Part shown: positions 942 through 34,701 of the stretch, in pieces | Position numbering within the stretch: position 1 is the stretch's first letter | Layout of the letters: each line of letters opens with the position of its first letter | Assembly: GCA_039621445.1 (NCBI GenBank) | Contig: CP154954.1 | Location: 21,340,954-21,404,953, forward strand | Source of the DNA: Euglena gracilis | Taxonomy: Eukaryota | Direction: 5' to 3' | Length of the DNA: 64,000 bases | The notes under the pieces: model-generated | Database searches by the model: none | What the model was told of the DNA's origin: nothing | The model's input: only the letters and a program-made list of their open reading frames with translations | Program-made: the position numbers and the translations under genes

Positions 942-1015
<74 letters not shown>

Positions 1016-1421: not shown

Positions 1422-1494
<73 letters not shown>

Positions 1495-11230: not shown

Positions 11231-14200
11231 TTCCGATAATTGCGCCGGATTCTTTTCCAATCGGTCAAGACGTCCAAACTCACAGATGGCAGAACCCGCA
11301 TGAGGGTAGAGAGGGTAGGGCAGGAAGGCGGTGTGAAAGGGGGATTCTCCAATTTGGGGGCATGGGTGCAGAATAAGGTTTAGGTTTGGTTTTAGGGTCA
11401 GCATCCGGGCTTGGGTTATGAACAGATTTTGTCCATGAAACCAGCAAACAAAGCACAACACCTGAATTGAGCTTGAGTCCGCTTTGTTGTTTTATTTTTT
11501 TTCGTTCAAAGTTGTGTGTCAAAACTCCATCAGAAAACAATGTTTTCAGTGAACCCCCCCCCCGTCTCATTCGTGGCTGGAGCTCTAGTAGGTTGGTTGC
11601 CCCTTCTCATCCGTGGCTGCAGCCCAGACCTTGACCCCTCCACCTCGGAGTTGGGGGTGATGGGCTTTTTGCCCCAACCCCCACCCTATGCGTCCAATTC
11701 CCATTAAATTGAGCACATTGCCGAAACTCAACAAGAGGTTGAAATGCAAGAACGGGAAACAGGCCACGAGACCCCCACCTTGGGGTCATTCATGGGGGAG
11801 TACACCGGCCACACAAGCCAAAGGAAAAAACCCTAGGGTGTGGGTGACCCACAGGTGAGGCGTACCCCCAAGGGGAAGCTGGGAAAAGGTACCAGTACCA
11901 AGTCGATGCACACCTCATATCGGAGCCACTCACTCAAACTTGAGTGAAGCATCCAGCAAGGGAAGGGGGAGTGCACGCCAACTCCTGTTGCTTCAGAAAA
12001 ATGTGGGTTGAGTTTAAAATGTGGGTTAGGTCGGAAGTTGCATTTGCATCATGTGCCTCGTGGGAGGGACCATGGGAAAAAAAACTTGGCAAAAGGGAGA
12101 GTTTTGGCTCTGATTGTTGTTCTGGACCTTTGAGTTTAACAGACACACTGTACAACACAGCATAAGTGCAGAACTTGGTTGTGAATTTTTTTGTTTTGCA
12201 TTTGTTTATTCATTTGTTTTTGATGCTTGTGTGGACAATTCAAGTGCAATGCTTTGAATGTCCATACCATGGACCCAGGCACGCATGGTGAACCCCACAC
12301 ACACCAAAGGTATTTGGCACATGCAAAAAAAGTGCGGGGTTTTTCGACTCATTTTATTACAATGCATTCATTCTTCATTTTGGTTGGATTTTGGTTGCGC
12401 ATGATTCAGCTTAGTTCCACAATGGAAATGTCTGGAAACGTCTAGAGAAAAGGTGACAAAAGTTGTTTTTGAGACATTTGGGACACTCTCAAACAACTCC
12501 TCTCCCAAATGACATGCGACATGGACAAAATGGCATTTGAGTTTTAGAGAAGCCATTTTCTACACTTTCGACAGGAGGGCAGAAAGATCTTGAGGGCATT
12601 TCGGGGGGATTAAGGTTGATGAGAAGGTGGAATGTTTTCTGTTACCCTCGGGTTGGGCCCGCAGGATGGCATGGGCTCCCAGGGCTGAGGGTGGCTCGGG
12701 GGGCTGCTCGTTGCTGCCAACCCGCTCCGCACTCCCCGCACCCTCACCAGAAGCTGCTCAGAAGCGTTTTGTCCAAACCATTGTTGAGTGTGTGTTCCAG
12801 CCCACCACCCCCAGGGGAGGGGGTGACTGCTTTTTTTTCCTTCGAAAGTGACCCCCCCCCCAGACCGACCGGGGGTGGCACTCAGGATCCCACAAAGGGT
12901 TTCCTCCCGGCACCAAATTTTTTGGCGTTTTTTTGAAGAGTTTTTGCGACGTGCCATTTTGGGTCGATGGAGGTCTGGGGACTCCGGACCAAAATCGGTA
13001 ATTTTGTCTTTCCGCTGTTCAGGGGGTCAGACCCCCCAGGTGACCTGGGGTCCCCTATCACTGGGCCATCCATGCATCCATGCAGCCCTTTTGGAACCAA
13101 TTTGGTTCAGACGTTCATCCCGGCCTTGTTGTTTGCGATGGTAAACCCCCAAGATTTTATTTGGCAAAGGCCTCTCGGGGGGGATTTGCTGAGCACATAT
13201 TTTGCGTATATTTTGCATATTTAGTGCATATATCAGGGCACATTCTGAGGGTTTCGGGATTTTCCCACTGCATATTTTGCTCGTTCCCGCTTATTTTTTT
13301 TGAATGTTTTCTTCATCTTATTCGGGCCGTCATGAATTGCTTCCAACCATTTCAGGCCATTTACTTCCATTTCGGGGACGGATTTTTGGCCTTTTTTTTG
13401 CGATTCCGGACCTTTTTTTTGCCATTTTGGCCAAAAAGTAGTCAAAAACTGGCCTCAAAATGGCGAAAATGGTGGCAAATGGTCCGAAAACGGCTGATCG
13501 TGGCTGGGTTTGGGCTGGAATGGCCCTAAATGGCTTGAAATGCCATTTCGGTCACCTGAATAGTTCCAGTTCCGGATGTATTGCATACTTTCTGCATATT
13601 TAGCGCACATTCCCACATATCTAAACGCGTATTTGGGGGGCTTTTGGCACATATCTCCCCTGCCCTGTTATTTGTCGCAGAAGGCTGTCAGCTTTGCTCT
13701 CAGCCTTTCGAACCGGATTTCCTTTTCCTTTTTTTTGCATTTGCAACCTACACCATGCAGAAGATCAGTGGGGACACAGTTATGTGTGCCCATGAACCAA
13801 TTCGGCGTGCAGAAAAAAATTATGGCAAGTTCTATTTGTGTGCGGTTTCAACGTGGCGAACCGTGCCCCCATCCAAAAAAAAATTTCAGCAGCAAGCAAC
13901 CAAACCCATTGAAGGCCCAGCAGTGGGGAAGAAGCCAGACGACAGCAGAATACCATTCCGTTGTCATCTTCCAAAGTCCCAATAAATTTTGTTTGGGTAT
14001 TAAAAAAAAAAGCACGGCAAGCCCAGCCCGCAAGGCGAAGGCCGCTTGCATGTCCAGATGGAATCAGTGGCAAGGGCCAGCAGAAAACAGGCATTGGAAA
14101 GCCACTTCCAGGGGCCAGGACAGCACTTCCAGGGCCACGTCGGACGGGGGGAGAATGGCACCAGGCCAGGAGGGCACAAGAAGACTCAGGCGGTGCGAGT

Positions 14201-14351
14201 TGCCCAAAAACCTTGACTCCTGGCCGGGCAAAAGAGACAAAATTGCACAGCGAAAAGGAATGTTTTCCTCAAGAGAAATTGGCCAGATCTTTCCTGTCGC
14301 TTTTTTAAGAAGCATGCGGTAATCAAAAAGATGCTTACTACCACCCAGGCG

Positions 14352-14830
14352 ACACCTCCGCACTTTGCCCGTGCGAGGCCATGTCTTGCCGGCGGTGTTT
14401 TTTTGGACTGCGATGCGCTTGGTTAGGAGTCCCTGCTTAATGCCTTTTTCGCCAGAGTTTGGCTGATTTCTAGTTCGCCCTTCGACGACCAGAAGAGAGG
14501 AACCAAATTGAACATCGAAGAAGTTTTCACAGGAGCAATAAATATCACATCAATATCCACAACGAGACGCGCCAGACGAGCATCAATTGAAAACCCATTA
14601 TCGAAATTAATTTGGACTTCAATGAGCAATGAATTACCAAAGAAATTGGAGTCACGCGGTCGGCCTGAAGGAGCAGAAGCGGCCGCGGCAGCTGGAGGAC
14701 CTGAAGGTGCGGACGAGACGTGGCAAACCGTAGCCCCCCCTCCCCCCACCCTTTCGACAGAAACTTTGTCCAATAAATCACCCAGTGACGGCCACTGTCT
14801 CTGGGCCCTTGTGGCCCGAAAGCCCAGCGA
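14352..14830 (+). mobile_element. Truncated 5' fragment of a DIRS-like element (terminal-repeat motif plus start of a gag-like ORF)
   Basis: CTCCGCACTTTGCC..GAGGCCATG..GCCGGCGGTG resembles the terminal motif at 36168-36215 and, inverted, at 40545-40595. The following peptide (LIWTSMSNEL..EAAAAA..WQTVA) resembles the gag-like ORF at 35438-36175 (HNWTSMKNEL..AAAAEA..RQSVA). Confidence 0.45.
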
Positions 14831-15219
14831 TCAGAATCGGTCTCCCACGACACAGGAAGGGGGAGGAAGGGACCAAGAGTGCGAAGCACAAGAAGATGGT
14901 GAGGTCCTGCTTTCCTTGCCGGCTGTTCGGATCTGGTGTGGTGTGTGTGTGCGGGGGGTGCTTCTTGCTGCGCTCTCGTTGCCGGAGTTGGCGATGATGC
15001 TGAGGCCTCCTCCGACACCTTGGCGAAGCTGAACCGTCGTGCCCCCCCCCCCCCTATACATGGTCGCTTGGTGGCCCCCCCCCCCGGTGGTGGGGAATGC
15101 TGTCTCTTTCTGGTGTGTTTCTGGGTGGGTGGTTTGTTTGGGTTGTTTGGCTGGTGGTCCCCTTTCTGGCTGGGATGTCTTTCTTTTGCTGCTGATTATT
15201 CGGGTGGGGGGGGTTTGGC

Positions 15220-16100
15220 TCACCATCTTCTTCTGATTCGCCCTGTTGGTCCCTTCCTCCCCCTTCCTGTGTCGTGGGAGTCTGAGACCATTCGAGCTCT
15301 GCACTGCGAGATGGTGAGGTGCTGTGCACCCCCCTTTGGGCCATATTTTTTTTGAATTTTTGATACGACTCCCAGCCTCAAATAATGGGCCTGAAAAGCT
15401 CCAAAATTTTTCCACTGTCCCAGTTTCTGGACTTCTTCCACTTGCAAGCCCGCATTCTTCCACCATAAAACCCCAGCCCCTCTGGTGCTGTGGGGTTTCC
15501 AGTTGGTGGTGTCCACCCCCCCCCTCTTGCAGAATTTATCTGGTAAGGGAATTCACTCTTTCTGAAGTCAAAGGTCTTTTACCATCCAAAGACCATAACA
15601 TTTTTGTGCCCAACCATGTGGGCTGTCCTTTCCACATACTCTTTCAATAAATGCCAGGGGCTTATGGGGGGGGGTGGCAAACTCAAAATCTCCTCCCACC
15701 TTGGGTACTGCCACCCTTTCCTTTGCAACAAAAAGAAAATTTTTCCTCCGTCAAGACTTATTTTTCGCTGTGTCCTGGCTAGGTCAACCCCCCTGTGGAG
15801 TGCCAAAAGCCTCCAACAAAGGATGAGTCTGCTTCTGAGCTCTTTCACAGATAGTTCTGAGAGGGGTTTTGAATTCCTGATGATGTTCTCCAGGAGTTCA
15901 GTGGGGTCTCAAAAATGGGGGTACTTGCAGACATTGGAATTCCATTTTTTTTTCAATGCAGCCAAAAGGGTGGAAAACCTCAATGACCAAAACCCTGGGA
16001 GTGACAAGGCTGCTGCATATGCATTTCGTGCAGTGTTGCGGCTGTGAACAGCGAGATCAAGGATGGCCTCAGCCATCCTGTGGACTGTGCAACCCTCCTT
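15220..16100 (-). pseudogene. DIRS A tyrosine recombinase (fragmented)
   Basis: LALHRGVDLAR (first Arg box), HSTR, GQW and AHY catalytic Tyr region across several frames. Confidence 0.75.
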
Positions 16101-16299
16101 TGTACAACAATTGGCCCACTAATGTCCTGAATGCTGAGTCATATCTTTTGACATTTCCCAATTTTTTTATGTAAGTTTTGATACTTCTTGGACATCGAAA
16201 CTTCCTGGGATTTGTAATATTTGCCTGACACAATCACATCGGCCAAATTCCACCTTGGGGGTGGGGGGCATCTCCTCCCCCCAGCAGTTGGTGAACAGA

Positions 16300-16603
16300 C
16301 CCCACTGGGGGGGTACCAGCAAAACTTTGTTGCCTGGCTGCCTGATTGACATTAATTGGCGCCATGATGTTGACGCCAGTGGGGTACGATCAATAGACAA
16401 ATCAGGTCTTGATTTAACATTATTCTCTGAACCCACTGGGGAGTGACGCTCCAGGGAGGGTTTGCATAAACTGGGGGGAGTCCCCTTGAATCTGCCTTCA
16501 AGGCATCCACCAGCAAAGCCCCTTGGTGGGGGTATCGACAAATGAACTTGGGGAAGTTTTTGTTACTGGGTGTGCAAAAAATGTCTACCTCTTGGGTTAC
16601 CAC
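16300..16603 (-). pseudogene. DIRS A DNA N6-adenine methyltransferase-like domain
   Basis: EVDIFCTPSNKNFPKF..VDAL..YANPPW..LIVPHW, the MT domain typical of DIRS1 elements. Confidence 0.75.
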
Positions 16604-16763
16604 TCCCCCCCCCTATTTGAGCACACCAACGGCCAAAGGACCCCCAAATGCTTAAATAAGGAAGGTCAAATAAGGGGGGGGGGATTTTGCCTATGAGAGA
16701 GGGCAAAAAAAAAATTTCGGCGCCTTCGACGCCTCAAAAATTTTCTTCACCGGACCCAAATGC

Positions 16764-18089
16764 TCAATTAGCGGGGGGGGGCAAATAAGGGGGGAGTGGT
16801 ATGTCTTTTCCGAAAAATTGAACAATTTGGTGAAAGATGTTCAGGTTTAGGGTATAATCCCCTGGGTCCCTTTGTTCCATGGTAAGGGATTCTGCCAATT
16901 GCTCTTTTGTGGGAACCCAAACCACCTGCACATTGATTTGCTTTTCTTGGCAATGATACAGCAGGGGTTTTAAGACGGAATTTAGGTAGGGCTTTTTGCC
17001 TCCCCATTTTGAAAAAAAACTTACAGCACATGAAGAATGATTGTTTGTTTTGGGTTGGCCAGCCTTTTCACTGTTTCCACTGCTGACATCAACTCTTTTT
17101 GGTTGATGTGAAGGATGTGCAGGTCCTTCCAAAAGTCTTGCACTTTTTGGCATGATTTTTTGTCCAGCCCCCCCCCACTGCCAGGTGCTGCTGTCTGAGA
17201 ACATTTTTTGAGAGGCCTGTGATTGAAATGTCCTGCCAACACCTGGATTTAAAAATGTGTTTAACTCCATAATTTGATCTTTGACCCCCTGTGGAATGGT
17301 TAGGGTGTGGTCCCAACCCCACTTTGTGTGCAAATCCACCATTTTGCAAAGTTGGTCTGTCAGAATTCTGAGAAATGGCACTGATGCTAAAAATATTCCG
17401 ACTTGCCCCACAATAGAACTGAGTTTTCTACAGCTCATTTTTTGTGCAGTCAGCACCTTGCCTAGTTCCTTTCTTAAAGGTTTTAGTTTTTCTTGAGGAA
17501 TTTCCAGTTGGTCCTTTTTCAAATTGACCCACTGGCCCAGATGCCTTATCTCCTGTGTGGGCTCCAGACAGGATTTGGGGAGGTTTAATCTGAACCTGCC
17601 AGTAAAATGTCCTGTTTTATTTCTGCCAAATTCTGGGCTGCTGTCTTCCTGCTGGGGGCTAACAGCAAAATGTCGTCCAGGTAGATGAAAACTACCTTTC
17701 CCTCCTTTCTCCATTTTCTTTCCCAGACTCTCGTTAGAATCATAAGTTTTTGTGGCAAGCTGCTGATGCCAAAGCATGCAGCTTGAAACTGCCAGGTTTC
17801 TTCCCCCACCTGCATGCAAACATATTTTTCTAAGCTGCTGTGCAGCTGTAGATGGAAATAAGCATCTTTCAGATCGATTTTCGGACAAAAGCCAACCTTT
17901 TCTTAAATGTGGGAAGAGTTTCCCATGTGCTCCAGTCTGAACTTCTGGGGGGTGAAGTGGAGATTTAACCGTCGACAATCTGATATTAGTCTTTCCTTTG
18001 TCTTTTCCCCTTATTTGTTGGAAATGATCAAATAAGGGACAAGATGTTTTGCCTCCTCTGGGGGGATTTGCCTGGTTGGCCCTGCACAT
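16764..18089 (-). pseudogene. DIRS A reverse transcriptase / RNase H (frameshifted)
   Basis: YLDD motif in an overlapping frame; LNLPKSCLEPTQEIRHLG; RNase H-like motifs. Confidence 0.8.
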
Positions 18090-18425
18090 TTGTATTATGT
18101 CAGAATGTTCTGGTCATTTGTTATTTCTTGGGGGGTTTTGAAGGGAACTTTTAAGGACACTTGAGGGAGGAGGGGAAGATCTGCCACAACCCCTTCGCTT
18201 ATCAGGTTTAATACCTCTCTTCTGACTTGACCTAACGGGGAATGCTGGCCTGCAGGGCTCTGTAAGGGGACACCCCTGTGTGTAATTTGTCTGGGGATTC
18301 CACAAGCCCCATCACTGGGGTCCTTCCCCCTGGCCTCCCCATCACCGGGGTCGTCTCTCCTCTGGCCCTGCCATAGGGCTGCTCAAATACAGGCTTTCCC
18401 CCTGTCCTTGAAAGATAGGGGAAGG

Positions 18426-18853
18426 AGTGTACGTCCAAAGCTTTTCCTTTTTCCCTTTTTTGGACTTTCTGTAAAAGCCTTTCGCTTTCGCCTTGGTGCG
18501 CAGCCTACTTATGGTAGGGAAAAGTCTTTGGAGTAACGAAAAGTGGTTTTCGCCTTTTCTTCCCAATTCCCCAAGAAGCAAAGCACAAAGCAAAGACTCA
18601 GAAGTTTCTTCTGAGATCAAGTTCGACTGTTCCGAGGGTTTTTCCCTCTGACAAAACCAATGGTCAAACTTTGGAAGAATGACAGTGAAGAATACCACCT
18701 GTGGGGGAAGGAGAGAAAAGTGCTGACGTGTCCAGGGGCAGATCCCAGAAAGGTCCGCCACGATCCTACCAGCTGTGGTTTTTCACAGTGGTGCGACCGT
18801 CACAGAACCCACTCTGCAGATATCCTACAGAGCTGGGACGTGCCTGGTACACA
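18426..18853 (-). repeat. 3' LTR (428 bp)
   Basis: Direct repeat of 34702-35113, differing by about 7 substitutions and one 16-bp indel (counted by eye). Confidence 0.93.
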
Positions 18854-18863
18854 TCCCCCTCCC
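18854..18863 (-). promoter_or_regulatory. Polypurine tract (GGGAGGGGGA)
   Basis: Purine run immediately 5' of the 3' LTR on the element strand. Confidence 0.85.
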
Positions 18864-19759
18864 AGGGCTACGCCCGATTTCCTTCACGGACCAGGGTTTC
18901 CCAGTCCAGTCAGGATATCTGACGCTGCCCCAGGTGGGGTTCACTTCTCCATTCGGTGTCTCTCCTTTCCGCACAGTGGCATCCACCCAAAGCCCAAAAA
19001 CGCGCAAAAGGTTAGCCGCGTTTCGCGGTTACCTATTAGCCGTTTCGGCTTAGGTGGGGTGTGAAAAAAGCCCACTGTGGGAAACGGGGCTTGGCAGTTT
19101 TCCTGACAAAGTGTCCCATCCACCCACTTTGGGTGTGCCAAAGGCACGCGGGGTTGGTCAAGCGATTCGCTGAAAACCCGAGGGGAGAGGTGTGGAAGGG
19201 AGGGGCAGGCTCCTATCCTGGTCATACCCGGATAGGGGTCCTAGGCGGTCATATCCGCACTAGGAAACAAAAGCGTACTTACAAAACCGACTGCCGGCGA
19301 CAGCTTTGCGGGGGTGGGGGGAACGTAGGGAGGAGAGGGGGGGCTGGCTTAGGCCAGAACAGAATTTTTGCTGTCTGGCAGCCTTAGGCGGCCTTATTGG
19401 CCGAAAAGTGACAAGTTGGCCTATTATTACGGCGTGCGCGCTGTGTGCTGTGTGTCACTTAGCGGCTTGCCAGGTTTCCCGGCCGCCAAGGTCTTCACAG
19501 CAGTAGCTCCTTCACGACGCAATAAGAGGCGATTACCTCTTGCAGACAGTTTCCGTCCGCGTGGCCATTGATAGAGGGGTGGTGGCGGGGGGGGGGGGGG
19601 CTCTTGGATGCATCCATCCAGAGCGCAGAGTGTGTGACACAGACCCAGGTTCATCCCAGGGCTGTTTAGCGATTTCCGATATATATATGTATAGTATATG
19701 GATGTCCAGGCTCCATGAAGGCACTTACCTTACATGAGCCTGGTAATGCCGTTTCGGCA

Positions 19760-22700
19760 TTACATCCGTTCCAGCCGCCAATAATCATGGCGGAAGTCCA
19801 AGGGATCTTCCACAAGGACCATCTGGAATTGTGGTGGTGGTGGCCTATCTACGAGCCAGGTTTCTGGCGATTCGTATTCGAAATCAGGCGCCACCCAGTC
19901 CCGAACCCATCCTTCGGGGACTGTGTGCTTGGTTGCACTCGCTCTTTCCGCGAGGAACCATTGCAGCTTCTCCCAGAATTTCCTGGGCAGAGTGGCTGGC
20001 CAGATGAAGTGATTCATCAGTGGGTGATTGACTGACACCTGCGGGGCATTCCCCGGGTGGAAGTCAATCGGCATGTGATACGCACATTCTGCGCGGACTG
20101 TATGGGGTCGTAATACGGCCCCAAGCCAGTCTTTCCAGGTCATCCCGTGGTCTTTGGGTGGCCATTGTGGCAGACACCAGCGACCGTTTTGGTCCTGGGT
20201 TGTGAACAGGCGGAAAAATATCTTTTCCCTGTCCGCTGTCTCCCAGAGGTCAGGTAATCTTACCTCTGCCTCCTCGGCAGCAAGGCGTATCGCCCAACTG
20301 TCGATCTGCCACCCACGGGCCATTCCCGTGTGGCGGTAGTCGTCAAGCTTGAGGTTGGAGTACTTGAAAAAATCTTGTACTTTTTGTGCAAGGTGGAGTC
20401 TTCCTCCAGTGGCTTCTGGGCACTTGGCACGATTGTGCGAACTGCGCCTTCCGCAGTTTGCCAGAAGGTACCTCGAAGGCAATTGACGCAGAGTATCGGT
20501 ACATTCGTACCGTCTCGCTCGGTGTAGCTAAAATTGTGCTTGTGGGTCCAACTGTCCACGCACTTGGCGCATACCAAGGCGGCACAGTTGGGGATGTATG
20601 CATCCTTGTGGAACGATTTTCGATCCACAGGGTTGCACACATGGACGAGGGGTAATCCCAGGTCAGGTGCACTGTTATACATCTTGTGGCATACAGTTCA
20701 AAGCCACACAAAACGGTTTTCCGTTGTTTTGTCGATGAGGAATTCCTCACCGAAGTATCGGGCCAAAACACGGGGGGATCTGGAATTATAATAATTCCAG
20801 GTCACGTTCTGATCAAAGGACCATTTTCGGCCCTGACAGAACAGTGGCTCAATCCACCGGTTGAGGCATTGCTGTGTCCTCGGTTTGTGGTCGATCATCA
20901 TGTACCTGTTTTTCAGGTCATGAATCTCAGGATCATCCTGATTGACCGCGTTCCAGTCGATGATAACTTCGTCTTCCGAAGGTGTCTCGGCTGGTGAGGA
21001 TTTTCCCTGCCCCTTTGACGAAGGTTTCGGCTGTGAGGTTTTCCCATAGCCGGATGATGTGACGTGCGTGAATCCTTGTCCCGAGGTTGATCCCCGAGAA
21101 GAGGATGCAGCACTCTGGCCGCCAGCACCACCACCGCCTTTCGGTGGGGGCTGATCACCAGATTTCGGTGTGGGCTTACAAGGTGCGGCGCCCGGCTTTG
21201 ATTTTGCCGGGGCCTTAGGACTTCCGGTTTCCGGAGCATCCGAGGGCCGCCGATCGGCGTCACGCTTGCTTGCCCAGGTGCGTGGTGACGCTTGGGACGG
21301 GGGTCTTCTCCCCGACACCGAGCGTCGTTGACCTTCGGCAGGGGTTTCCCGAGCTGAGGGTCGTCCTACGCGTTCCTTCGCGGCTTCCGTGGGTTTCCCA
21401 GGGGCAGCCGTGGGGGATGGTGTGGGTGTAGGCTTGGCTGGCGCACTTCGCGCTGGTTGAGCTTGTGGTGGGGGCATGGACGTCCGCTCAGCCTGTTTTT
21501 CAGGCGCCGGTGTCCGTGTACCCGGGTGCTTTGGTGCAGTGGCTGTGGATGTGCGCTGAGGTGCGGGTTCATCCCGTGCCTCGGCTGGCGCTACCGGTGC
21601 TGATATAGGTTTATCCTGTACTGGCACGGCTGCTGTTGTCTCCACGGCCATTGCTGTCTGTTCGCCCTCCGTCCGTGTCGATTCCGACACCGGCGGTGGC
21701 GCGCCGCTGGGGGACGTTCATCCTCCACCATGGCTGTTGTGTCAGGTGTGTATCCCGCCGGCTGTGCAGTTTCCGCCGCAGCTGTGGAAGAACTGGCCGC
21801 AGTGCCACGTGGGGTGACAACTGCGATGAGTGACCGCAAACCACCGAGTACGCGTCCGCCCAGCGAGGTGCGTCGCTCCTCACCTGAAGTGGGCTCCTAG
21901 GCTGGCTCCTCTGTTAACGGGGTTTCCCCGGGAACAGGGAGGTTGAGGCGTAATACCTCAGGCGTGTGGGGCACCGTCTCCGGCGGGTTCTCCCGCGGAG
22001 GGGTCGGTCTCCCCGGCGTACCCAGTGAGGATGGTGACGGTGGGACGGGTGTCATTTCGCCTGTCGGCGATCCTGGGCGCTGGGCAGTTTCTGCCACAGT
22101 GTCCAGCATCACGACCGATGGGCTACGGGTTTCCCGTGCCGGAGGTTCTGCTGGCTGAGGTTCATCCTCGGCCATAGGGACCTCTTCCTCCTCCTCCTCC
22201 GCTTCCGAGGGGAGTCCTCTGTGTGGAGTTGTGCTGCAGTACGCGGGTCTTTTCCGCTTCTGTAGCACCCTTGTGCATCTGACAGGCGGTAAAAGCTTAT
22301 ACTTTCACTTCTGTCAGTCTGGGGTATGGGGGCGGCCACGACGCTCTCACCCAGCTTCCGGGTGGAGGCTGCGGCTCGTCGTCGTCGATCAGGCAGAGGT
22401 CTTCCCACTGCTGTCGACAATTCTCAGTCACGCCGTAATCTCCTAGTTCTTCCAGGAAAGCGGGCAGCGGCAACGCATAACGAGGTACTTTTCCCTCGTG
22501 TGCGGCGAAAAACATCTGGAAATCTTCCCATATCAGGATATTCCCGAATTGGGTATCCAGGTGCTCCTGGAGGCCAATTTCGGCCTCTTCCCAGTCCGGT
22601 CGCAGGTTCATCCTGCGCTGGTCAGGGTCATTGGGTCTGGGCGCCACCTCGGTGTATCCCCGAGGTAACCGCCCTTCTGTGGACATCCACATCGGTGTTC

Positions 22701-25158
22701 ATGTATTCCAATATGTAGACCTCCAGGACGTAGGTAATCCACGCCCTGTGCCAGTACTGCTGCAGCAGAAATATTTTCTGCCGGTGCTGTTTCAGCACAT
22801 TTCGGTCTTGCGTTCCGAGATTGGGATTCCGGCACTGATGCAGGAGGAATCTCCTGGTCGGCTGGCTGCCGGCACTTTCGGCAGTCGGAGGCGGTTTTCC
22901 GCGTTCTCCGAAACCCCAGAAGTCAACAATGTGAACTTCTTTGCAAAACTGGCATTCCAGTTTGAACCGCTGGGGGTACGCGAGGTCCACGTCCAGTACC
23001 TTGAACAGCATGCCATACATGCTGTCCAAGAATACTTGGAGGTTGCTTGTGAACATTACCGCAGCCTGCGCCTGGAGTTTCTCCGGCAGGGGGTAGTACT
23101 TCCACTGGATTCCCAGTGCTCCCACGGAATACATGTGAGTGAAGATTTCCTTCAACTGTGCGACGAACGTTTCTCGTCTTCACAAGTATTCATACAATCA
23201 ATATACGTCAGACCGTTTCGGTCAGTAAAAATGCCGAAATTCTGGCAGGGGTATCCCAACCAGAACCAGAGCTCCCAGAAACCGGGCATCCGGTCCAGGA
23301 CAACTTCATTCGAATGAGGTTATCCCTCAAACGCATGAAGTTCGGCACCGTAGAAAAAACGTTTGCAGTGATCGTTCATACGATTCTGCACCACTTCGAG
23401 CACCGCATCCGGTGGTCGGTGGATCACGTTGCCTGCCCTTGTGAACGTTTGGAGATCCTTGTCGGTTTTCGGCCAGATCTCCTCAAGGTATTTGAACACT
23501 GAGGCAACGTCATAATCCTTCGTTTTGGAAGGTTCGGCGGCTTTTCCGCCTTTTCCTACTGGAGGTCCGGCAGATTTTCCGCCTTTGCCTGGAGTTGGCC
23601 AAGCGGCTTTTCCGCCTTTGCCAGGTGGGGCTTTTCCACCTTTCTCCTGGCCTTTTCCTTTACCCTTACCCTTGCCCTTACCTTTACCCTTACCCTTTGT
23701 GTTAGACAGCCATTCGAATGTCGCCCAGTAATCCCAGTATTCTGGGTCTTCTGGCGTAAACACAGGGTAAGTCACGGATTCTGTGCTTGGCGCTCGAGCA
23801 AATTCCTGCTCAGCGTCACCACGATTCGAGTAAACCGGTGCAACTGGGGATGGTCGGGTTTCCCGACGTGCCCGTTCTGCCGTCACGTCTGGCGCTGGCG
23901 GAGCTTCCTCCTCAGCGTCGACGTGCATCGCCGCGGGCGGTTTTTCCGACCTCGGCGAGCGGCGCTGTGGCTGCGGCGTCAGGTTTTCCGGGCCGCGGTC
24001 ACGCTTGCCGGCGGCAGAGCTTGTGGGCCGTGCTGGAGGCGCTTCCGCCACATCAACGTCCTGCTGTCGCGCTGGTTGACTTGATCGTGATGGAGCTGGG
24101 ACTCCTGTGAGAGCCGACACAGCAGCATCATACTGCTGGCGCTCTTCTCGTGTCATTTCCGCCCGGACAGGGTATCCCTGGCCGGCGGAAACAGGGGGAC
24201 GACGTGCTATTTGTCGTTGGATTGTCACAGCATATTCATACTGTTGACGCTCCTCCGAAGTCTCGAACGGCCGGCCAGTCCACGGGTTAACGGGTTCATC
24301 CCGTACCGTGGGAACTGGTGCCGCACGAGGCGCTGCCGGGGCTTCCTGTGGACGAGCGCTTCGGGCAGAGTCAGACGCCGGGGGAGGGTTTCCCTCCGCA
24401 GGACGTCTTGGGATAGGGTCAGGTATGGTTGGGTGGGGTTGAGGTGGATACACGTACTGATCCCGTGGCATTGGCGCCTCCTGGGGGTAATCCCCAGAGA
24501 CGGTGTACTGAGACACATGCTCCTGCGCAGGATAATCCCGCCGGGGCATGCGCTCAGGGGATCGAAAAATACTTTCTTTCACACGTGGGTGTTCACTCCG
24601 GACAGGTGCTTCTACTGTCTCTTCCACGAGTAATCCGGGGGAGTGAGCACGAAAATGTGCAGTGTAAGTGCCAACTGGTGGTACCTGCCGTGCTACCTGT
24701 GGCGGGACTTCCACGCCCAGGTCACGCATGGTAATGTCCGCCGCGAATCCCGACGTGTCCGGGTCGGTGTAGTACACCAGACCGGTCATCGTCGCCTGGG
24801 CGCACATACACCACAGGGCTGGAGGGGTATTCGCGATGGTCAAAACTTTACGGCAGTGGTCATCCCACAATGCCTGGGTGAGGTGGTCTGGTGCCGGGTT
24901 TGCGCTCATACGCATAACCCGGTTCATCGTCTCCGCCGTGCGGTGGATCATCACACCCGCAAACGGTGGGAGGCGACGGGAGCCTGATGGCTGGGATGGC
25001 CGCGCTTCCGCGGGCATCGAGGTCCTCCTGCTACTGCTGCTGGCTTCAGGGTTTCCCTGAGCCGCAGTCCGTGCAGGTGGCTGTGTACCGTATCGGTACG
25101 CATACTGGTCAGGTTGAGGGTGAGTGGTGGGGCGGTCCTCCGCCTGGCTCCCTTCCAC
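19760..25158 (-). pseudogene. Large accessory coding region of the LTR element (ORF pieces 23320-25158, 22628-23155, 22297-22692, 21897-22268, 20698-21690, 20260-20682, 19760-20482); function unknown
   Basis: A near-continuous chain of same-strand ORFs with protein-like composition. Trp/Tyr/Cys-rich globular blocks alternate with P/A/S/K-rich linkers. No recognised domain. Confidence 0.7.
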
Positions 25159-25330
25159 CGGGCAGCATGATACAGCCCGGGGTCGGTACGGTGGGATGTT
25201 TGGGTTGTTGGTTGTAAGGTGTGTAAGGGTAACCGCTTGAGTATTATTTGCTAAAAAGTCTGCGGAAAGAAAGAATGATAAGAATCAATGATAAAAAGAA
25301 GAGAAAACAACATGGGTTTCCCATGCGTTC

Positions 25331-25615
25331 TCAAAAACTTGTCATGGAAACATCAATGTTATGTTTCTTGTTCCACAGCTTCCGATACTGCTGGACATAC
25401 CCAACAAAACTGGTTGCTGGCTCCCAAGTGTCCTCCTCGGGCCCACACCCTTTCCAGCGGACCTTCCAAAGGTGCATACCTTTGTCGATTTTGTGATCGA
25501 TGATTTTATCGACTACAAAGTCGTCCGTCTCAGGTAATCTGGAACGGGGTTTGAAGTGCAAACACGGGATGGGTTTCCCATCCGGTGGCGACAGGTATGG
25601 TTTGAAGTCGTCCAT
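25331..25615 (-). pseudogene. Chromodomain at the integrase C-terminus
   Basis: FVVDKIIDHK...WKVRWKGCGPEEDTWEP is a classic chromodomain signature. Confidence 0.9.
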
Positions 25616-25919
25616 ATGAACGTCCTCAAAACCATTCGGTAATGCAACCTTGTAACGCCCGCTGGTACCTAGTCTTTCTAGGATTTCGCAGGGGCCGAGC
25701 CAGAGGGGGTCCAGCTTGGAAGATGCATGCGAGTACGGCTATTCCGCACCCACACGCGGTCACCGGGACTATACACAGGTGTCTTGAAATTCTACAAAGC
25801 CGATTTCCGTTTGGTTGCATGAATATCAGTCACGCGCTTCTGGACTGCAGAACGTAGATTTTCTACTTCCGCAAACCAGCTGACACTTGTTCGGTCGGGT
25901 CTCTCCGAACGGACATCCC

Positions 25920-28200
25920 CTATGGCCGGAGGGTCCCGTCCGAAACTAATTTATAGGGGGAGTGTGGTAAAACCAACCCTGGTAGGGTATTGATATAAAA
26001 CAAAGACCATGGTAGAACTGATATCCAGTTGCTGCGTGGGTCAGCCAGTGAAAGGCGAAGCATATTCACGACGGATTTCACGGCTGCCTCGGCTCTACCA
26101 TTGCCTTTGGGTCGGTATATAATGGAAAAATGTTGCTCGATTCCGAGAAAACCGCATAAAGTGGTGAAAAACCTTGAAGAAATCAAATGGTCTTGATGAC
26201 TCACGATTTCATTCGGTAAACCCATTAAGCAAATGCATTTCTCCAAAAATATAGTTGCCAAACTTTGGGCAGTCAACCCTGACTTCTGGCATGGAATGGC
26301 TACAATGTACCCACTCAGCCTGCAGACGACCACAAAAACGTAATCGTAAATTTTGTCGTCCGTTCCTTTGCACGGTTCTAATTCTAGTAAATCCATGCAG
26401 AGGGATGTAAAAATGTCAGGGGGTACGGGGAAAAAGTCCATCGTACCAGGGGGGGTACCTCTGCTGGGTTTTACCACTTGACAAATTTGACACCGTTGCG
26501 CTATTCGCAAACAGCGTGAGTAAAGCTCTTTCTCGCTCAGGGTTGTGCAATACCTGCGGCCCACCAACGAAAGAAGTTTGGGGGCCCCAGGGTGACCATG
26601 GTTGTGATAACACAAAATCACATCATCAACCAGGTCCTGGGGGATACAATATTTGTAACCCGACTCATTGCGAAAAACCAACCGTAAAGGTGAAAGAGTG
26701 TAATTGTCCAGCACTTCGCCATTACGAAGTCTGGTGACAATGGTGTCATACACCGGGTCACGACTATAATCCCATTCGCGAAAGAACAGTGGGGAAGGGG
26801 ACTCCGTGCGTGTGATACGCCGTGGTCCGGACGTGCTTCCACGTCGGCGCCTTCCGCGCACTGGTGCGATCAGGAATATTTGTGAAACGGGAAAGGAATC
26901 CAAAAGATTATCCGCAGCGTCGTTTCGACGTGCGTACTCGTCAGCTTCCTGACTTCCATGAAAAGTCGCGTCTCCTTCATCCGGGTTCCCAGGGTAATAC
27001 CAAGGGACCCGACTGAGCGGATCCGCTACTTTTTGTGTGTGACCAGGGGTATAAATAACCACAAGGTTGAATTGACTCAAGAACTCATGCCATCTGCATC
27101 GCCTTCCGACCGATGACATGGCCTTCTCATGGTCGGTCTTGACGAGGATCTGGACGAGGCTGCTGGCTACCCAGCTTCGGAATTTCTGGAGTATAAGCAC
27201 GATTGCGTAGGTTTCCTTCTCGCGTATACTCCACTTGACGTGACCTTTTCCATCATCGCCCTGTAACTTTCTGCTGAAGAAAGCCACAGGTCGGAGCTCA
27301 TTCGCCGCGTTATGCTGGCTAAGAACTCCGCCAACAGCGTAATCGCTGCTGTCGACTTCCAGGACATATGGTTTGTACGGGTCCGCGATTTCGAGGACAA
27401 CATTCTCCAAAAGCAAAACCTTGATTTTCTCAAGGGCCTCGCGCATTTGGTCATCCCAAATGACTTTGGTGTTGTCAACAGCCCGGTTTTTGAGCTGTTT
27501 GGTGAGGGGCACCGTGATTTTCGCGAAGTCCTTCATATATATCGCGTAGTATTGGGCTAATCCCAAAAATCCTTTGAGGTGAGTAATCGTTTTGATTACC
27601 TCAGGGGTCCATTTCTTAATGGCTTCGAGTTTACTGGGAGCGGCTTTCCGCTGTCCATTGCTGAGGATGTGACCGCAAAATTTTATGAGTATCCGAAACA
27701 AATGCATTTTCGCGCCTTTCGCGAAAAGCACATGTTTTTGAAAAGCGGTTAATACCGTGCAAACATGGTGGAAATGTGTGACGAGGATATCCTCGCTCGA
27801 TTTTGCGGATGGAGGTGGCGTTCCCACCAGCACATCATCAATGTACACAATGGCAAACGGTAAATCGCGTAGAACCCATTGTATCATGCGCTGAAACATG
27901 GCTGAGCCATTCTTAACACCCATGGGGAGTACCGTCCATTGGTACACACCCTTGGATGTCACGAATGCCGTGTATGGTTGTGAGTCAGGGTGCAAGTGCA
28001 TTTGGTGAAAACCGTCCTCCAGAAAATTGACCACAACCGTTTTTCCGATTGTTTGGTGATCAAGTCCTCGATCAGGGGGAGCGGGAAGGGATCATCCCTT
28101 GTTTGGGAGTTCAGGTACCGGTAATCCAGCACCAGTCTCCATTTCTTCTGACCTGAGGGGTCTGGGGGTTTAGGAACAGCAAATGCTTGGGATGTCTACT
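25920..28200 (-). pseudogene. pol: Pol: reverse transcriptase, RNase H, integrase
   Basis: WRLVLDYRYLN, LPMGVKNG, YIDD; DSSDYAVGGVL..PVAFFSRKL..EKETYAI; HHCC (HNHGHPG..CQICQ); integrase MD..(H in place of the second D)..GRAE. In-frame stop at 28196-28198 and a frameshift near 28030. Confidence 0.93.
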
Positions 28201-29965
28201 CACTTTTCGAGGGTACGATCCAATTGCGCTGAATAAGCTTCTCAATCATTTCATTGAGAGCTTGTTCGCGTTCTCCCGAACATCGAAAAAATTTTCGGTG
28301 CATTGGTTTAGCTCCTTCCTTAACCTCGATCTTACAAACACCGAACGGACCGCGTATCGCGGGGTCGATGTCGCACGCGTATACTGCATTTTCCAGCACA
28401 CCGTGAAATTCGCGGGTAATCCGCGAACAGAATTCGGCTGACTTAGGATGCTGACCTGCACTCTCGATGACTGCGGAAACCACCAGGGTATCCCTGGGGC
28501 TACCGAGCTTCCTCGGCACCGCGAATTCAGACATTCCGAACGCATCGAAGAAACATACGCGAAAAATGATTTCTTGCAAGGGTGGTAATATTTTACCACA
28601 AAAATCCTCACAAATCGGTATATTGGTGGGTAAATCCCACCAATAAAAACATACATACGATAGTTGTGTGAACCATTCCGCTTCCGGAATGATGGGTATG
28701 AGAATAACTGCACGGGCTTCATCCCGCAGAATTTTCTCAACCGCACATCCGATAAGTTTTGGGGGAGGGTGCATCCATAACACCGTATCACCCCAAAATT
28801 TATCAAATGCGTTGGAGTGTTGTGACCAATGACGTGGCAAACGGGCATGTGCATTTGATGAAAAGGCATCGATTTCTAATGCCAAATCAAAAGAATCAGC
28901 CAATGTCGCGATTTTGGAAAACCATCGTTCCAAAATGCGATATTGACCAAAATTGAAAGCATTCCATACGCGTTTCGCGTATTCATGCACCCGATTTCCG
29001 GGTTGGAGTGAAGAAACACAATGAATGGATCCACAAACATGCGGGTTGTCTTCCACTACCTCAAGGGGTAATCCCAAGGGAGTTTGGACAGGTTGGGGGT
29101 TTCCCCATTCCGCATCGAATCCGTACAAAGTGTGATCGCGATTGTAATTAGGAATGACGCTTTTCGCGTTTCCGAACAACGAGGCGAATCCGCGTTTTTG
29201 GAGTACTCGGTGTATCTCCGCGCATTGCGGGCTACAAACAAGTCTATCCTGGGGTATGGATTCCGTTTTCGGAATTACGATTAGTGTCGGATTTTGAACT
29301 AAACATCCACAATCGAAATCCGATTGGGTGGAAATTCTCCTGTAGTGCACACATTGGAAGGAAGTGTAGTGGTGTGACGGATGTGCGTGTAAGTGGGTGT
29401 CGATGGCATTAGCCGGTGAGTCTTGTACAGGTGTGCCTGGATTCGGCACAACTGGTGGGAAACGGAGTGGTGGTGCGGCTGGGCGACTACTCGACACCGA
29501 TATATCTTCAGGCCTTTGGGCTTTCGTCTTGTAACCCAGTGAAACGGCGGGGGTACCGCTACTCGCTTGCCCTGCCTCATGTGGAACGCATGTTGGTGTG
29601 TCATTGGGCAGGGGGGAGGCTTTCTCCGTACCCCGGGTGTGGAAAACGGTTGTTGGTGTGGTGGATAACGGTGTTGCCATTGTGTGTAACGGTGTTGGAA
29701 AAGTGGTGGTCATCATGGCGGATGCCAACGGTGATGGTGGTTTGGGTGTCAATGAAGTGGTGGGTGCTGTGCGCAAACCGTGGAAGTGGCAATCCACAAC
29801 CAATCGGTACTGGCGTAAAAATGGGTATCCCAAAATTACGTCAGACCTGTGAATTCCGGACTCGTAACCCCAAATATTGGTGAAATGTTGTAATTGTTGG
29901 GGTTGTGAGTGATGCTTCGGAATGATGGGCAAGAGTATCTCGAGCACATCCCAAATCACCACCAC
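28196..29965 (-). CDS. Pol segment between protease and RT containing a Thr/Pro linker, a Cys/His-rich block and a Dam-like methyltransferase-like domain (~28540-28960)
   Basis: Starts with the protease C-terminus (DVILGYPFL) and ends in the RT N-terminus (CKIEVKEGAKP..WIVPSKSE). Contains EIDAFSSNAHARLPRHW..AFDKFWGDTVLWMHPPPKLI..VEKI..AVILIP..W. Confidence 0.8.
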   Translation of the reverse strand: MVVIWDVLEILLPIIPKHHSQPQQLQHFTNIWGYESGIHRSDVILGYPFLRQYRLVVDCHFHGLRTAPTTSLTPKPPSPLASAMMTTTFPTPLHTMATPLSTTPTTVFHTRGTEKASPLPNDTPTCVPHEAGQASSGTPAVSLGYKTKAQRPEDISVSSSRPAAPPLRFPPVVPNPGTPVQDSPANAIDTHLHAHPSHHYTSFQCVHYRRISTQSDFDCGCLVQNPTLIVIPKTESIPQDRLVCSPQCAEIHRVLQKRGFASLFGNAKSVIPNYNRDHTLYGFDAEWGNPQPVQTPLGLPLEVVEDNPHVCGSIHCVSSLQPGNRVHEYAKRVWNAFNFGQYRILERWFSKIATLADSFDLALEIDAFSSNAHARLPRHWSQHSNAFDKFWGDTVLWMHPPPKLIGCAVEKILRDEARAVILIPIIPEAEWFTQLSYVCFYWWDLPTNIPICEDFCGKILPPLQEIIFRVCFFDAFGMSEFAVPRKLGSPRDTLVVSAVIESAGQHPKSAEFCSRITREFHGVLENAVYACDIDPAIRGPFGVCKIEVKEGAKPMHRKFFRCSGEREQALNEMIEKLIQRNWIVPSKSE

Positions 29966-30335
29966 ACATGGGGGTGTTATCCGCGGTTGTAATTTTGATC
30001 GGTTTCTTGGCGCTTACCAAGAGCGAGGTTGGTATCAACCCCAACCGAAAGAGCAGTGCAATGCGACAACCAGTGTCAATGAGAATTTTAACTTTGGTGG
30101 AGATATTTTGGATGCGGATTTCCGCTTGGACAAGTAATTCCATTGGTGGTACGCAAAGTGAAGGGTCTGGCGGAAATACGTTTGCATGCCAGCTCTCCCA
30201 TGAACCCTTTCCTACTTTGCTCAGCATTCCGAGCGGAAATGTGGAGTGGGGGGTAGGGGACCTGAAATAATTCCGGGTACTGACCGTGAAGGCGGATGGG
30301 CAGGGGGGGTAAGGTTGATCAGGTCTTACCTCCAT
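29841..30335 (-). pseudogene. Retropepsin aspartic protease (frameshifted)
   Basis: KILIDTGC active-site motif followed by IKITTADN. Confidence 0.85.
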
Positions 30336-30599
30336 CTGTTCATCAGCCCAGAGGTCCGTGCCCTCGGACCTCGGGCTCCCCTACTCCAAGTCCGAACCGG
30401 CCGCATAGCCGGCAACGGACTTTTTGGTGGAATAGATGGAATTCAATGAGCGCACCGCCATTCGGGCCTCATTAAATTCCCCGTCCGAGGTCTCATCCCC
30501 CTCCCTGCCCGAAGCCGGGGTGTCCTCCTCCAAACAAGAAATCTTGAATCCGACCTTTTTCCGGTTGGAGGAGTAACCACGGTCATCGCGGCGCTTACC

Positions 30600-31780
30600 G
30601 CGATTTCCGTAGCCGGGCCGGGGGGAACGAGATCTGGGACATTTGGATGAGTGGTGGTCTTTGGAACCGCAAAGTGAACAACGGGATTTGTGGCGGGATT
30701 CCGCATAACGGGGGGAACGGTTTTCCGTTCTTCCATCAAACCGTCGTGGTGAACGGGTTTCTTGTCGACCATGACCGGTGTACCGGGGTTTCCCCGGTGA
30801 CTCGCGCGAAGAGGATGATCCACTTCGCGAACAAGATCATGAAGACTCGCGATTGAAATCCCGTTTTCGGGTAGGGGGTCCAGGTGACCGACCGCGAGGA
30901 GGACGGATTTCCCGACCATCACGCGATGGTGACTTGGGCCTACTACCGCTAAAGCGGTTCTCCGAAGAACGTGAAACTCCCGATTGTCGTGAAAACGCCG
31001 AGGAACCCGATCCCCGTGAGGAGGTCGAGCCCCTTGGGCTTCCAATACGCTTTCGCGCATCGGGATTCGGGCATTCCCGAGACATGTGACCAGATTTGTT
31101 GCACAAAAAACACAGTTTATCCGTGCCTTGGTCCGAAGAACGCTGATTCCGCGTTTTCGGTCCCGTGGTCGGTGATCTTGGTGACATGGGTGATTTTTGC
31201 AACGCATTAACCGCACCTGCAGGGATTCCCGCGGTGGGATGCGTTTGGAAAGCGGACTGTATTTGTCCCAAAACTTGTGTGAGCTTGAGTTGCTTTGACA
31301 CATAATTCCAACGTTGGACAAGAGTCATTTCATGCCCTGCCAACTCCTCGCGATGGATATCCTTCACGAGGGATGGTGAGAAATGCAACAAAACCGCATC
31401 GAATTGTTCGCGCATTTGCTTCTCGCTAAGTTCATGAACTTCGGAAGCAAGTGCTAACCATTTGGCATACCAAAGTCAATGGATTTCCATTTGCGATCGG
31501 ATGGCGCGGATTGTCGCCATTTCTTCTCCAGGGTAATCCTGGTGACCAGGCTTGAGTTGGTTGAAGCGTATTGCTCAACCAGGTCATCGAATGATACGCC
31601 ATTACGTATCACCAAATTGCGTGCGCGTTCTCGCTCCTCCCTCGGTAGGCAATCGATGAATTCCATCTTGACTACCTCGGGATTCGGGTCTTGGGTGGGT
31701 CCCTTTAGTGCCCAGTAGTACTCCCAGTCCCGAAAAAATTGTCTCCGTGTGGTTGGATCCCCGTCCCATTGGGGCTTCAC
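30600..31780 (-). pseudogene. gag: Gag with two CCHC zinc knuckles (split ORFs)
   Basis: PQWDGDP..FFRDWE capsid-like start; CFLCNKSGHMSREC (~31071-31112) and CSLCGSKDHHSSKC (~30639-30680); R/S/G-rich nucleocapsid region. Confidence 0.8.
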
Positions 31781-34491: not shown

Positions 34492-34690
34492 ATAAGCAGA
34501 GAAACAGGGACCAGAAATGTTGTATCGGCGATTACCGAACAGAGCCTTCTGAGACCTGTATTCTTACTTAAAGGTTGGCTTGGGGCCAGGAACAGTACTT
34601 TCACCGTGTTTCACGGCTCAGTACGATCCTCACCACCAGTCAACCACAGATTTTCTCTGTGTGGAACGTCTGTGTGGGATCGTTGCCTAA

Positions 34691-34701
34691 CTCTGCTACC
34701 A
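34691..34701 (-). promoter_or_regulatory. Primer-binding site TGGTAGCAGAG (initiator tRNA-Met)
   Basis: Directly follows the 5' LTR and is complementary to the ...CUCUGCUACCA 3' end typical of eukaryotic tRNA-iMet. Confidence 0.85.

Follow-up and report, generated by a model that had tools for sequence, protein, structure and literature searches.

The question raised by this locus is what is encoded by approximately 5.4 kb of unrecognized sequence that follows the pol gene of a large retrotransposon in Euglena gracilis. The stretch analysed here (the window) comprises 64,000 nucleotides of contig CP154954.1 (GenBank assembly GCA_039621445.1, positions 21,340,954 to 21,404,953), and all coordinates are those of the window. 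Our reading is that 25168–19763, on the minus strand, is a decayed accessory open reading frame (ORF), ORF3, of about 1,800 codons, which is carried by a 16.7 kb chromovirus and expressed separately, and the probability of this reading as a whole is put at roughly 0.55. The stretch is real coding sequence of the element, on its sense strand, and the copy in the window is inactive, having acquired about seven frame changes and two stops. That it represents a genuine accessory gene borne by the element is highly probable.

The carrier element was delimited by its termini. Long terminal repeats (LTRs) in direct orientation are found at 34702–35113 (5′ LTR, minus strand, 412 nt, identified by direct-repeat comparison with the 3′ LTR) and at 18426–18853 (3′ LTR, minus strand, 428 nt, sense 5′-TGTGTACC...CGTACACT-3′). 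They are 98% identical in two ungapped blocks and 94.4% identical across a gapped 428-nt alignment that includes one 16-nt indel. Direct reading revealed the same 5 nt, GAAGG, bordering the element outside 18426 (at 18421–18425) and 35113 (at 35114–35118) as a target-site duplication (TSD), as well as a primer-binding site (PBS), TGGTAGCAGAG, immediately after the 5′ LTR (34691–34701, minus strand) and a polypurine tract (PPT), GGGAGGGGGA in the sense orientation, abutting the 3′ LTR (18854–18866, minus strand). The PBS presumably pairs with an initiator tRNA-Met whose 3′ end is of the ...CTCTGCTACCA type, with the presumed match stopping beyond 11 nt. Between the LTRs, Pfam domains occur in the order expected of Ty3/gypsy elements, namely CCHC (zf-CCHC, E 1.2e-5), reverse transcriptase (RVT_1, E 1.6e-15), RNase H (RT_RNaseH_2, E 8.5e-24), integrase zinc and core (Integrase_H2C2, E 2.6e-6; rve, E 1e-7), SH3-like (SH3_Tf2-1, E 2.4e-5) and chromodomain (Chromo, E 1.4e-11). 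The LTR pair, TSD, PBS, PPT and domain order together identify 18426–35113 (minus strand) as one complete Ty3/gypsy chromovirus insertion of 16,688 bp.

The region of interest belongs to this element, as a preliminary description of the sequence had held, and shows no termini of its own. It lies on the sense strand between the two LTRs and within a single TSD, and a repeat search of 18400–25800 found neither inverted arms of more than 18 nt nor long direct repeats bounding any part of it. Its CpG observed/expected ratio (0.88) resembles that of pol (0.97) and of the whole element (0.90) and not those of the flanks (0.54 and 0.48). The density of breaks is also alike: ORF3 has about nine in 5.4 kb, and the 6.1 kb of gag-pol has five, of which three are frame changes and two are stops. 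The preliminary description had the region adjoining the 3′ LTR, but that LTR starts at 18853, leaving a 0.9 kb tail at 18867–19759.

Seven minus-strand, stop-to-stop pieces had been reported in the region and all of them are present, at 25284–23323 (654 aa), 23179–22631 (183), 22698–22300 (133), 22304–21900 (135), 21717–20701 (339), 20697–20263 (145) and 20527–19763 (255). Two further pieces had been missed, an eighth at 22330–22211 in another frame and a ninth at the start, 25168–~25115. The interruptions are more numerous than the few stops and frameshifts first described, as about nine breaks were counted, comprising about seven frame changes and two stops (TAA at 23322–23320 and, between the 339- and 145-codon pieces, an in-frame TGA at 20700–20698). 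In 500 first-order Markov shuffles of the region the longest frame averaged 178 codons and never exceeded 408, against 654 in the actual sequence. The seven longest frames add up to 1878 codons, where the shuffles averaged 904 and peaked at 1282. When 1000 local shuffles were made, none reached the length of the 654- or the 255-codon piece, while 12 reached that of the 183-codon piece. Frame openness therefore proves coding for the two ends of the region only and not for the middle linker. Codon usage trained on the gag-pol of the element picks the originally described frames in every globular block, and a GC1 > GC2 periodicity (GC content at first and second codon positions) was seen in these blocks.

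The sense strand of the region is only 17% T and all three frames are open for 100–150 codons in places. Long frames are common in such sequence, and for this reason chance open frames in T-poor, GC-rich non-coding DNA were considered as an explanation for the whole. However, a frame of 654 codons was reached in 0 of 500 and 0 of 1000 shuffles, four outside proteins match the region and the replacements that separate it from the closest of these are conservative. Chance has next to no probability as a general explanation; it is refuted for 25168–22113 and very unlikely for 20980–19763, and remains only for the stretch from about 22113 to 20980.

The closest outside protein was recovered in a word-based search with the 183-residue piece. 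This protein, P0006 (E 1.4e-74), is encoded by an unbroken ORF of 319 codons on a contig of 1,013 nt, and it traverses four window frames in order with 88% protein identity. Its residues 1–135 correspond to the first half of a middle globular block (22670–23179, frame 1; 116 of 133 positions identical over 23056–~22670), residues 132–247 to the second half (22321–22668, frame 0; 102/116), residues 245–284 to the short extra piece in frame 1 (22211–22330; 32/40), which is bridged by the sister ORF, and residues 287–319 to a frame-2 piece (21900–22304), of which the acidic EAEEEEEE... run at 22205–22113 is matched (26/31). The sister thus retains one frame where the window copy shifts three times. 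Both of the Cys/His motifs in the middle block, CQFCKEVH (22954–22931) and HQC (22840–22832), are unaltered in P0006, and its ORF ends at the contig edge, at the equivalent of window position 22113.

Constraint was tested on the protein replacements. In a separate alignment, 38 replacements were found in 311 aligned residues, and 33 of the 38 are a single base change from the codon in the window. On BLOSUM62 the replacements average +0.42, compared with about −0.5 (standard deviation 0.27) for random single-base non-synonymous changes, and at a kappa (transition bias) of 1, 2 and 4 the value of +0.42 was reached by 0, 1 and 2, respectively, of 5000 simulated sets. Local alignment trims the ends slightly in favour of this result, though the alignments are near full-length and nearly gapless. 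The conservative nature of the replacements indicates that the lineages of the window copy and P0006 diverged under protein-level selection, and during the active life of the family the region was evidently subject to purifying selection. The preliminary description had looked to sister copies for the presence of the region and for codon-level conservation, and the sister identified here keeps the frame and shows constraint.

More distant relatives were found using HMMER. The 654-residue piece was compared with 1.84 billion representative proteins and three matches were obtained, each confined to the N-terminal part of the piece: P0001 (367 aa, E 9e-30, 45% identity), P0002 (269 aa, E 1e-11, 34% identity) and P0003 (77 aa, E 2e-10, 51% identity). 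All three are unnamed environmental gene calls, and the similarity spans the N-terminal ~350 residues. P0001 is colinear with residues 104–352 of the window sequence, with 113 of 281 columns identical, including proline-rich stretches that resemble low-complexity sequence and the first TSEE(R/H)..Y motif. An alignment of the window sequence with P0001, P0002 and P0003 (alignment A2) contains 12 invariant columns, amongst them C, W, C, Q, G and Y, and both a conserved block, Q.L.D..C...L..A....A.W.xC.Q....G..Y, and an H..R.HSP motif are present; a profile search with A2 recovered P0002 alone. The conserved domain occupies 24975–24634 in the window (LWDxxC..WCxC..H..R.HSP) and is probably helical. 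Judged by its sequence, this N-terminal domain of ORF3, as seen in the window and in P0001, P0002 and P0003, would define a new family.

The relationship with P0001 also bears on where ORF3 begins. In a tblastn comparison, residues 21–361 of P0001 matched frame 0 at 25122–24172 (E 7e-59), within what is the main part of the 654-codon frame (23323–25122, minus strand), while residues 1–20 (MLPGRGPGPGPP...), the Met included, matched another frame at 25168–25106 (E 0.003, target of 1.4 kb), the two matches following each other directly in P0001. The likely start codon is therefore the ATG at 25168–25166 (frame 1, MLPGG..., in the piece at 25106–25168), with an additional frame change near 25115. 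The stop codon of pol is at 25333–25331, leaving a spacer of 165 nt before this ATG. A composition scan located a pyrimidine tract ending in CCGCAG within the spacer (25260–25307, minus strand). Only one other 40-nt stretch along the 16.7 kb sense strand reaches 85% pyrimidine, and the CAG of the spacer tract is about 92 nt before the ATG. This tract looks like a 3′ splice acceptor. The 165-nt spacer, the alignment of the P0001 Met with ATG 25168 and the near-unique pyrimidine tract ending in CAG suggest that ORF3 is an accessory gene apart from pol that starts at this ATG.

The alternative that ORF3 is a C-terminal extension of Pol, with the stop at 25333–25331 and the frame change that follows it both representing decay of this copy, is highly unlikely. 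One more frame change is cheap in a copy that is full of them, and a recent preprint reports methyltransferase modules joined to the 3′ end of pol in some Dam-bearing LTR elements (bioRxiv 10.64898/2026.05.21.726589), but the 165 nt beyond the pol stop are T/C-rich with poor codon scores, and the Met of P0001 aligns to ATG 25168 with no pol-like sequence before it. In addition, no fused protein consisting of pol plus this domain was found among the 1.84 billion representatives, in the HMMER search made with no length limit.

From its start, the separate ORF3 would have the following layout, in which block limits were set by eye and motif coordinates were computed. Following the N-terminal domain, the main part of the 654-codon frame contains P/Y-rich motifs and two EERQQY motifs (24255–24238 and 24147–24130), then an acidic proline-rich linker, then the aromatic PEDPEYWDYWATFEWL motif and, 3′ of it, (KG)7 (23697–23656) and PxGKGGK repeats that together span 23697–23542, before the middle block starts. 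GKGGK occurs three times exactly and a fourth KGGK was seen by eye. The Cys/His, EERQQY, KG and GKGGK motifs noted previously were thus all located, and repeat finders also detect the KG and GKGGK repeats. Past the in-frame TAA, 55 codons continue the 654-codon frame (23155–23319, minus strand; reading and codon usage), and the frame changes near 23170. The middle globular block, at about 23520–22320, has approximately 400 residues and a C-x2-C-x4-H ... H-x-C arrangement. It is followed by the acidic run, by about 1.1 kb that is rich in P, A, S, T and K, and by the last globular block.

That last block, at 20979–19763, again comprises about 400 residues, is rich in Trp and His and contains a Cys/His cluster. 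The 339-codon piece (20701–21717, minus strand) is P/A/S/T/K-rich at 21717–20980 and then contains the start of the block at 20979–20701. The next piece (20263–20697, minus strand; motif reading and codon usage) carries the cluster HVCNP..NC..VCAKC..H.H..CVNC at 20643–20479, and the frame changes near 20420. The final piece of 255 codons (19763–20527, minus strand, frame hi mod 3 = 1) makes up the W/H-rich globular C-terminal part and ends at the stop at 19762–19760.

A number of observations, concerning continuity, start and expression, genomic context, base composition and the outcome of family and fold searches, weigh against the reading of a single, separately expressed ORF3. At 20980–22300 the longest open frame was reached by 99 of 1000 shuffles. 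All three frames are fairly open there because T makes up only 12%, and the codon-usage score singles out no frame between about 22340 and 21170, the frame of the last piece being favoured from about 20450. Coding is thus unproven for 22113–20980 and there may be one protein or two. The single protein of about 1,800 aa that was first proposed can be followed continuously over the 319 codons of P0006 and over the first ~360 by means of P0001, while for the linker of about 1.1 kb, and for how the last ~400 codons connect, the evidence consists of frame openness and codon usage.

Two or more genes downstream of pol, with ORF3 at about 25168–21900, an ORF4 formed by the last ~415 codons (~20980–19763) and 1.1 kb of non-coding or partly coding sequence between them, would be consistent with the shuffle result and with the undecided codon usage at about 22340–21170, and the arrest of P0006 at the contig edge leaves this stretch unbridged. 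However, no gap delimited by stops and followed by a clear new start codon is visible, and EDEVIIDW (20976), with which the last globular block opens, continues the 339-codon open frame. Long P/A/S/T linkers also occur in the N-terminal part of ORF3, where P0001 conserves them, and such linkers are therefore typical of the ORF3 protein. We consider the two-gene arrangement somewhat unlikely.

The start and expression of a single ORF3 are also exposed, as the match of P0001 at the start codon is short, lies in low-complexity sequence and has an E value of 0.003, and the splicing and expression proposed for ORF3 are conjecture. For P0001, P0002, P0003 and P0006, scans of metagenomes, viral contigs and genome contigs confirmed no DNA locus. 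The GC content at third codon positions (GC3) is 0.60–0.68 in the globular blocks of ORF3, compared with 0.45–0.52 in gag, in the reverse transcriptase, RNase H and integrase part of pol and in the 5′ ORFs, and it is 0.59 in the chromodomain piece. The higher GC3 of ORF3 hints at a different origin, possibly later acquisition from a GC3-richer source.

This difference in GC3 and the occurrence of P0001 and P0002 as stand-alone gene calls would fit a captured (transduced) host gene, with P0001 and P0002 being cellular and the element carrying copies that have no role in its life cycle. LTR elements are known to take up ORFs (PMC5408684). On the other hand, a protein divergence of 12% from P0006 with conservative replacements, together with the intact P0006 frame, is the pattern of a gene kept by the element, the CpG content is like that of the element and unlike that of the flanks, and no known host family matches. 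Capture, in the sense of cargo with no role, is therefore unlikely, though capture and later domestication by the element are compatible with each other.

The absence of recognizable relatives is the remaining point to be weighed against ORF3 as a gene with a definable product. At E ≤ 5, Pfam matched none of the scanned ORF3 pieces, neither of two read-through translations in which X stood for the in-frame stop, and none of P0006, P0001 and P0002 (three of the four outside relatives), and sequence and profile searches of the PDB gave nothing below E 0.3. As the preliminary description had anticipated, no match to a known host-gene family was thus found in Pfam for these sequences. For the last 255-codon piece there was no homologue among 578 candidates, and its best score in the Atlas, 0.84, was sub-threshold. 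AlphaFold2 models were unusable, with a mean predicted local distance difference test (pLDDT) score of 48.0 for A2 (four rows) and 39.6 for a second alignment, A3 (three rows).

Specific identities were considered and rejected. A feature search of the Atlas with residues 1–240 of P0006 listed protein clusters that carry CxC5/CxC4 domains associated with Kyakuja-Dileera-Zisupton (KDZ) transposases (score 0.88, 140 shared features), which is a sub-threshold lead only, and a CxC/KDZ identity was rejected as Pfam, which includes CxC and KDZ models, gave no match at E ≤ 5 for the scanned pieces or for P0006. This lead is also what would favour an independent nested element, such as a KDZ-type DNA transposon with CxC clusters, inserted into the chromovirus. 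With no terminal inverted or direct repeats, with Pfam silent for both the pieces and P0006, and with the same strand, CpG content and level of decay as the chromovirus, a nested element is barely credible. A cross-brace finger of the RING or PHD type was rejected for the cluster at 20643–20479, for which there was no Pfam match and for which the RING and zinc-finger rows among the PDB results were at chance level (E 0.5–1.7; RING 1.0–1.7). The spacing of this cluster, C-x16-C-x4-C-x2-C-x5-H-x-H-x16-C-x2-C by eye, differs from the eight-ligand RING/PHD consensus. A C5 cytosine DNA methyltransferase (DNMT) was rejected for the middle block. A lone P-C-Q tripeptide, seen by eye in the 23319–23155 piece, has no companion motifs, and P0006 covers the part where later motifs would be expected yet has no Pfam match.

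The product is also not an envelope (env) protein. The absence of a signal peptide or transmembrane helix noted earlier was borne out, as the highest mean Kyte-Doolittle hydropathy over 19 residues was 1.16 among all ten pieces and no env family was found in Pfam. Neither internal duplication nor any likeness to gag, pol, the 5′ ORFs or the flanking 449-aa ORF was detected in ORF3. We infer that the ORF3 product is a soluble, largely disordered scaffold that bears Cys/His clusters and basic repeats. A role involving nucleic acid or chromatin is a tentative suggestion, more doubtful than not, which is made because of the basic repeats and the putative metal-binding clusters and which fits the presence of a chromodomain and of a Dam-like block in pol. 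The zinc binding and the anti-silencing role that were first proposed would likewise have as their basis the Cys/His spacing, the basic repeats and these two modules of pol.

If ORF3 is a separately expressed gene, its translation would be from a subgenomic RNA, which might be made by cis-splicing at the tract and CAG at 25307–25260. Alternatively, in a host with trans-splicing such as a euglenid, a spliced leader could be added at the tract to give a capped ORF3 message; a euglenid spliced-leader motif had no match at up to three mismatches. The protein produced would have a small Cys/His domain at its N-terminus, a strongly basic segment of (KG)n/PxGKGGK repeats and a pair of ~400-residue globular blocks with Cys/His clusters. 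It may bind nucleic acid or chromatin and aid the RNA, the particle or the integration of the element, or it may instead blunt silencing by the host.

A more ambitious proposal, which is improbable, is that ORF3 is a new chromatin or epigenetic effector whose two ~400-residue blocks are enzymes or readers with new folds. Expressed by splicing or trans-splicing at 25260, it would form with the Dam-like block and the chromodomain a three-part toolkit with which the element might choose or rewrite the chromatin state of its own insertions. LTR retrotransposons are usually seen as gag-pol machines, and extra genes are exceptions that reveal adaptation to the host. Here, one third of a 16.7 kb chromovirus would be made up of one or two conserved genes that have no detectable relatives in Pfam or the PDB and, among 1.84 billion representative proteins, only three relatives in addition to one closer copy (P0006). 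Because its pol also contains a Dam-like block and coiled-coil ORFs take up about 2.4 kb before gag, the element is a candidate for the stacked 'epigenetic toolkit' elements reported in 2026. Should the ORF3 domains bind zinc and chromatin, or be enzymes, they would represent new protein families with a ready functional context. If they do not, the locus would still be a clear case of selection maintaining an orphan gene in a retroelement.

The position of ORF3, after pol and before the 3′ LTR, is that of env in errantiviruses, Athila-type elements and retroviruses, and a spliced subgenomic RNA with an acceptor just upstream of the start codon would be a further likeness to env. Unlike env, ORF3 has no signal peptide, transmembrane or fusion-peptide-like segment. 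REM1 of Chlamydomonas is a chromovirus-like, chromodomain-bearing LTR element with an extra gene thought to act on chromatin. However, the extra ORF of REM1 has recognizable domains and the opposite orientation, while no such domain is detectable in ORF3.

Other LTR elements with additional genes provide partial parallels. In bdelloid rotifer LTR families (Rodriguez et al. 2017, PMC5408684), ORF3 encodes a GDSL esterase, a DEDDy exonuclease or other proteins. These are likewise extra sense-strand genes between pol and the 3′ LTR with non-membrane, modular cargo, but they belong to recognizable enzyme families, whereas the ORF3 described here matches none, has about 1,800 codons and is found in a chromovirus. 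In plant Retand/Tat elements (Vicient 2025, PMC11963269), the long regions between POL and the 3′ LTR contain tandem repeats and encode conserved proteins of obscure, possibly DNA-binding function. The several kb between pol and the 3′ LTR that enlarge the element are a shared property. However, Retand elements are non-chromoviruses with antisense ORFs (TRP28 domain), while the coding strand here is the sense strand, as the P0006 match demonstrates, and the antisense and tail ORFs (n=12) gave one Pfam match, at E 0.2, and none better.

A further parallel is with the DAM-LTR or 'EpiLTR' elements, which Fernandez-Moreno et al. (bioRxiv 10.64898/2026.05.21.726589) describe as Ty3-like, many with chromodomains, with a Dam-like adenine methyltransferase in pol that has an Asn-Pro-Pro catalytic motif and a Val four residues upstream. 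Some of these elements add a cytosine DNMT at the 3′ end of pol, and the hosts include Euglena gracilis (10.64898/2026.05.21.726589). The euglenozoan setting assumed in the preliminary description is compatible with these hosts and with the CpG depletion of the flanks. In the window, the Dam-like block lies at about 28900–28660 (minus strand), between protease and reverse transcriptase, in the 30013–28199 piece, residues 371–450 of which match positions 22–105 of the 169-position profile PF05869. The match is weak (E 5.4e-4, 20.1 bits, under the 28.1-bit cut-off). The motif reads V-L-W-M-H-P-P at 28783–28763, so that the Val and Pro-Pro are kept and the Asn of the DAM-LTR N-P-P is replaced by His in the copy here, which is decayed. 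Membership of the element in the DAM-LTR class is plausible. The 3′ module of the EpiLTR elements is a C5 cytosine DNMT, whereas no DNA_methylase match was found in Pfam at E ≤ 5 in the scanned ORF3 pieces or in P0006. A 5.4 kb ORF of unknown family is not described in the abstract or Results of that report, and none of the papers listed in literature searches describes such an ORF.

The remainder of the element was annotated from Pfam matches and motif reading. The end of pol, with the SH3-like domain and chromodomain, is at 25331–25738 (minus strand), and the protease, the insert with the Dam-like block, reverse transcriptase, RNase H and integrase are encoded at 25920–30380 (minus strand), with the DTG motif of the protease at 30077–30069. 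Between the protease and the Dam-like block, at 29000–29850, pol contains about 300 residues that are P/T-rich and Cys-rich and have no Pfam match, and the insert between protease and reverse transcriptase totals about 450 residues. Two long ORFs (370 and 449 codons) are found between the PBS and gag, at 31780–34243 (minus strand). The second of these matches the coiled-coil family NPV_P10 (E 1.4e-8, above the cut-off), and the pair constitutes about 2.4 kb of extra coding sequence that also adds to the size of the element.

The tail at 18867–19759 (minus strand), which extends from the ORF3 stop to the PPT, has no long frame, weak or negative codon-usage scores and no Pfam match. It holds a C-rich pyrimidine tract (19347–19308), a patch rich in G/C homopolymers and a short TA-rich patch.

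Outside the element, no other copies of the region were found within the 64-kb window by blastn or three-frame tblastn, and tRNA and Rfam scans of the window gave no matches. Among the 155 flank ORFs of at least 110 aa, none had a usable Pfam match; the 20 scanned at E ≤ 1e-3 gave a single match, PROL5-SMR (E 6e-4), which was under its cut-off, and the remaining 135, at E ≤ 1e-4, gave none. A 449-codon open frame is located directly outside the 3′ LTR, at 16767–18113 (minus strand), and has neither a Pfam match nor a likeness to any part of the element. The flanks, 1–18425 and 35114–64000, are CpG-depleted (observed/expected 0.54 and 0.48, compared with 0.90 for the element), and the element has the appearance of a recent insertion into ancient, repeat-like DNA that is probably methylated.

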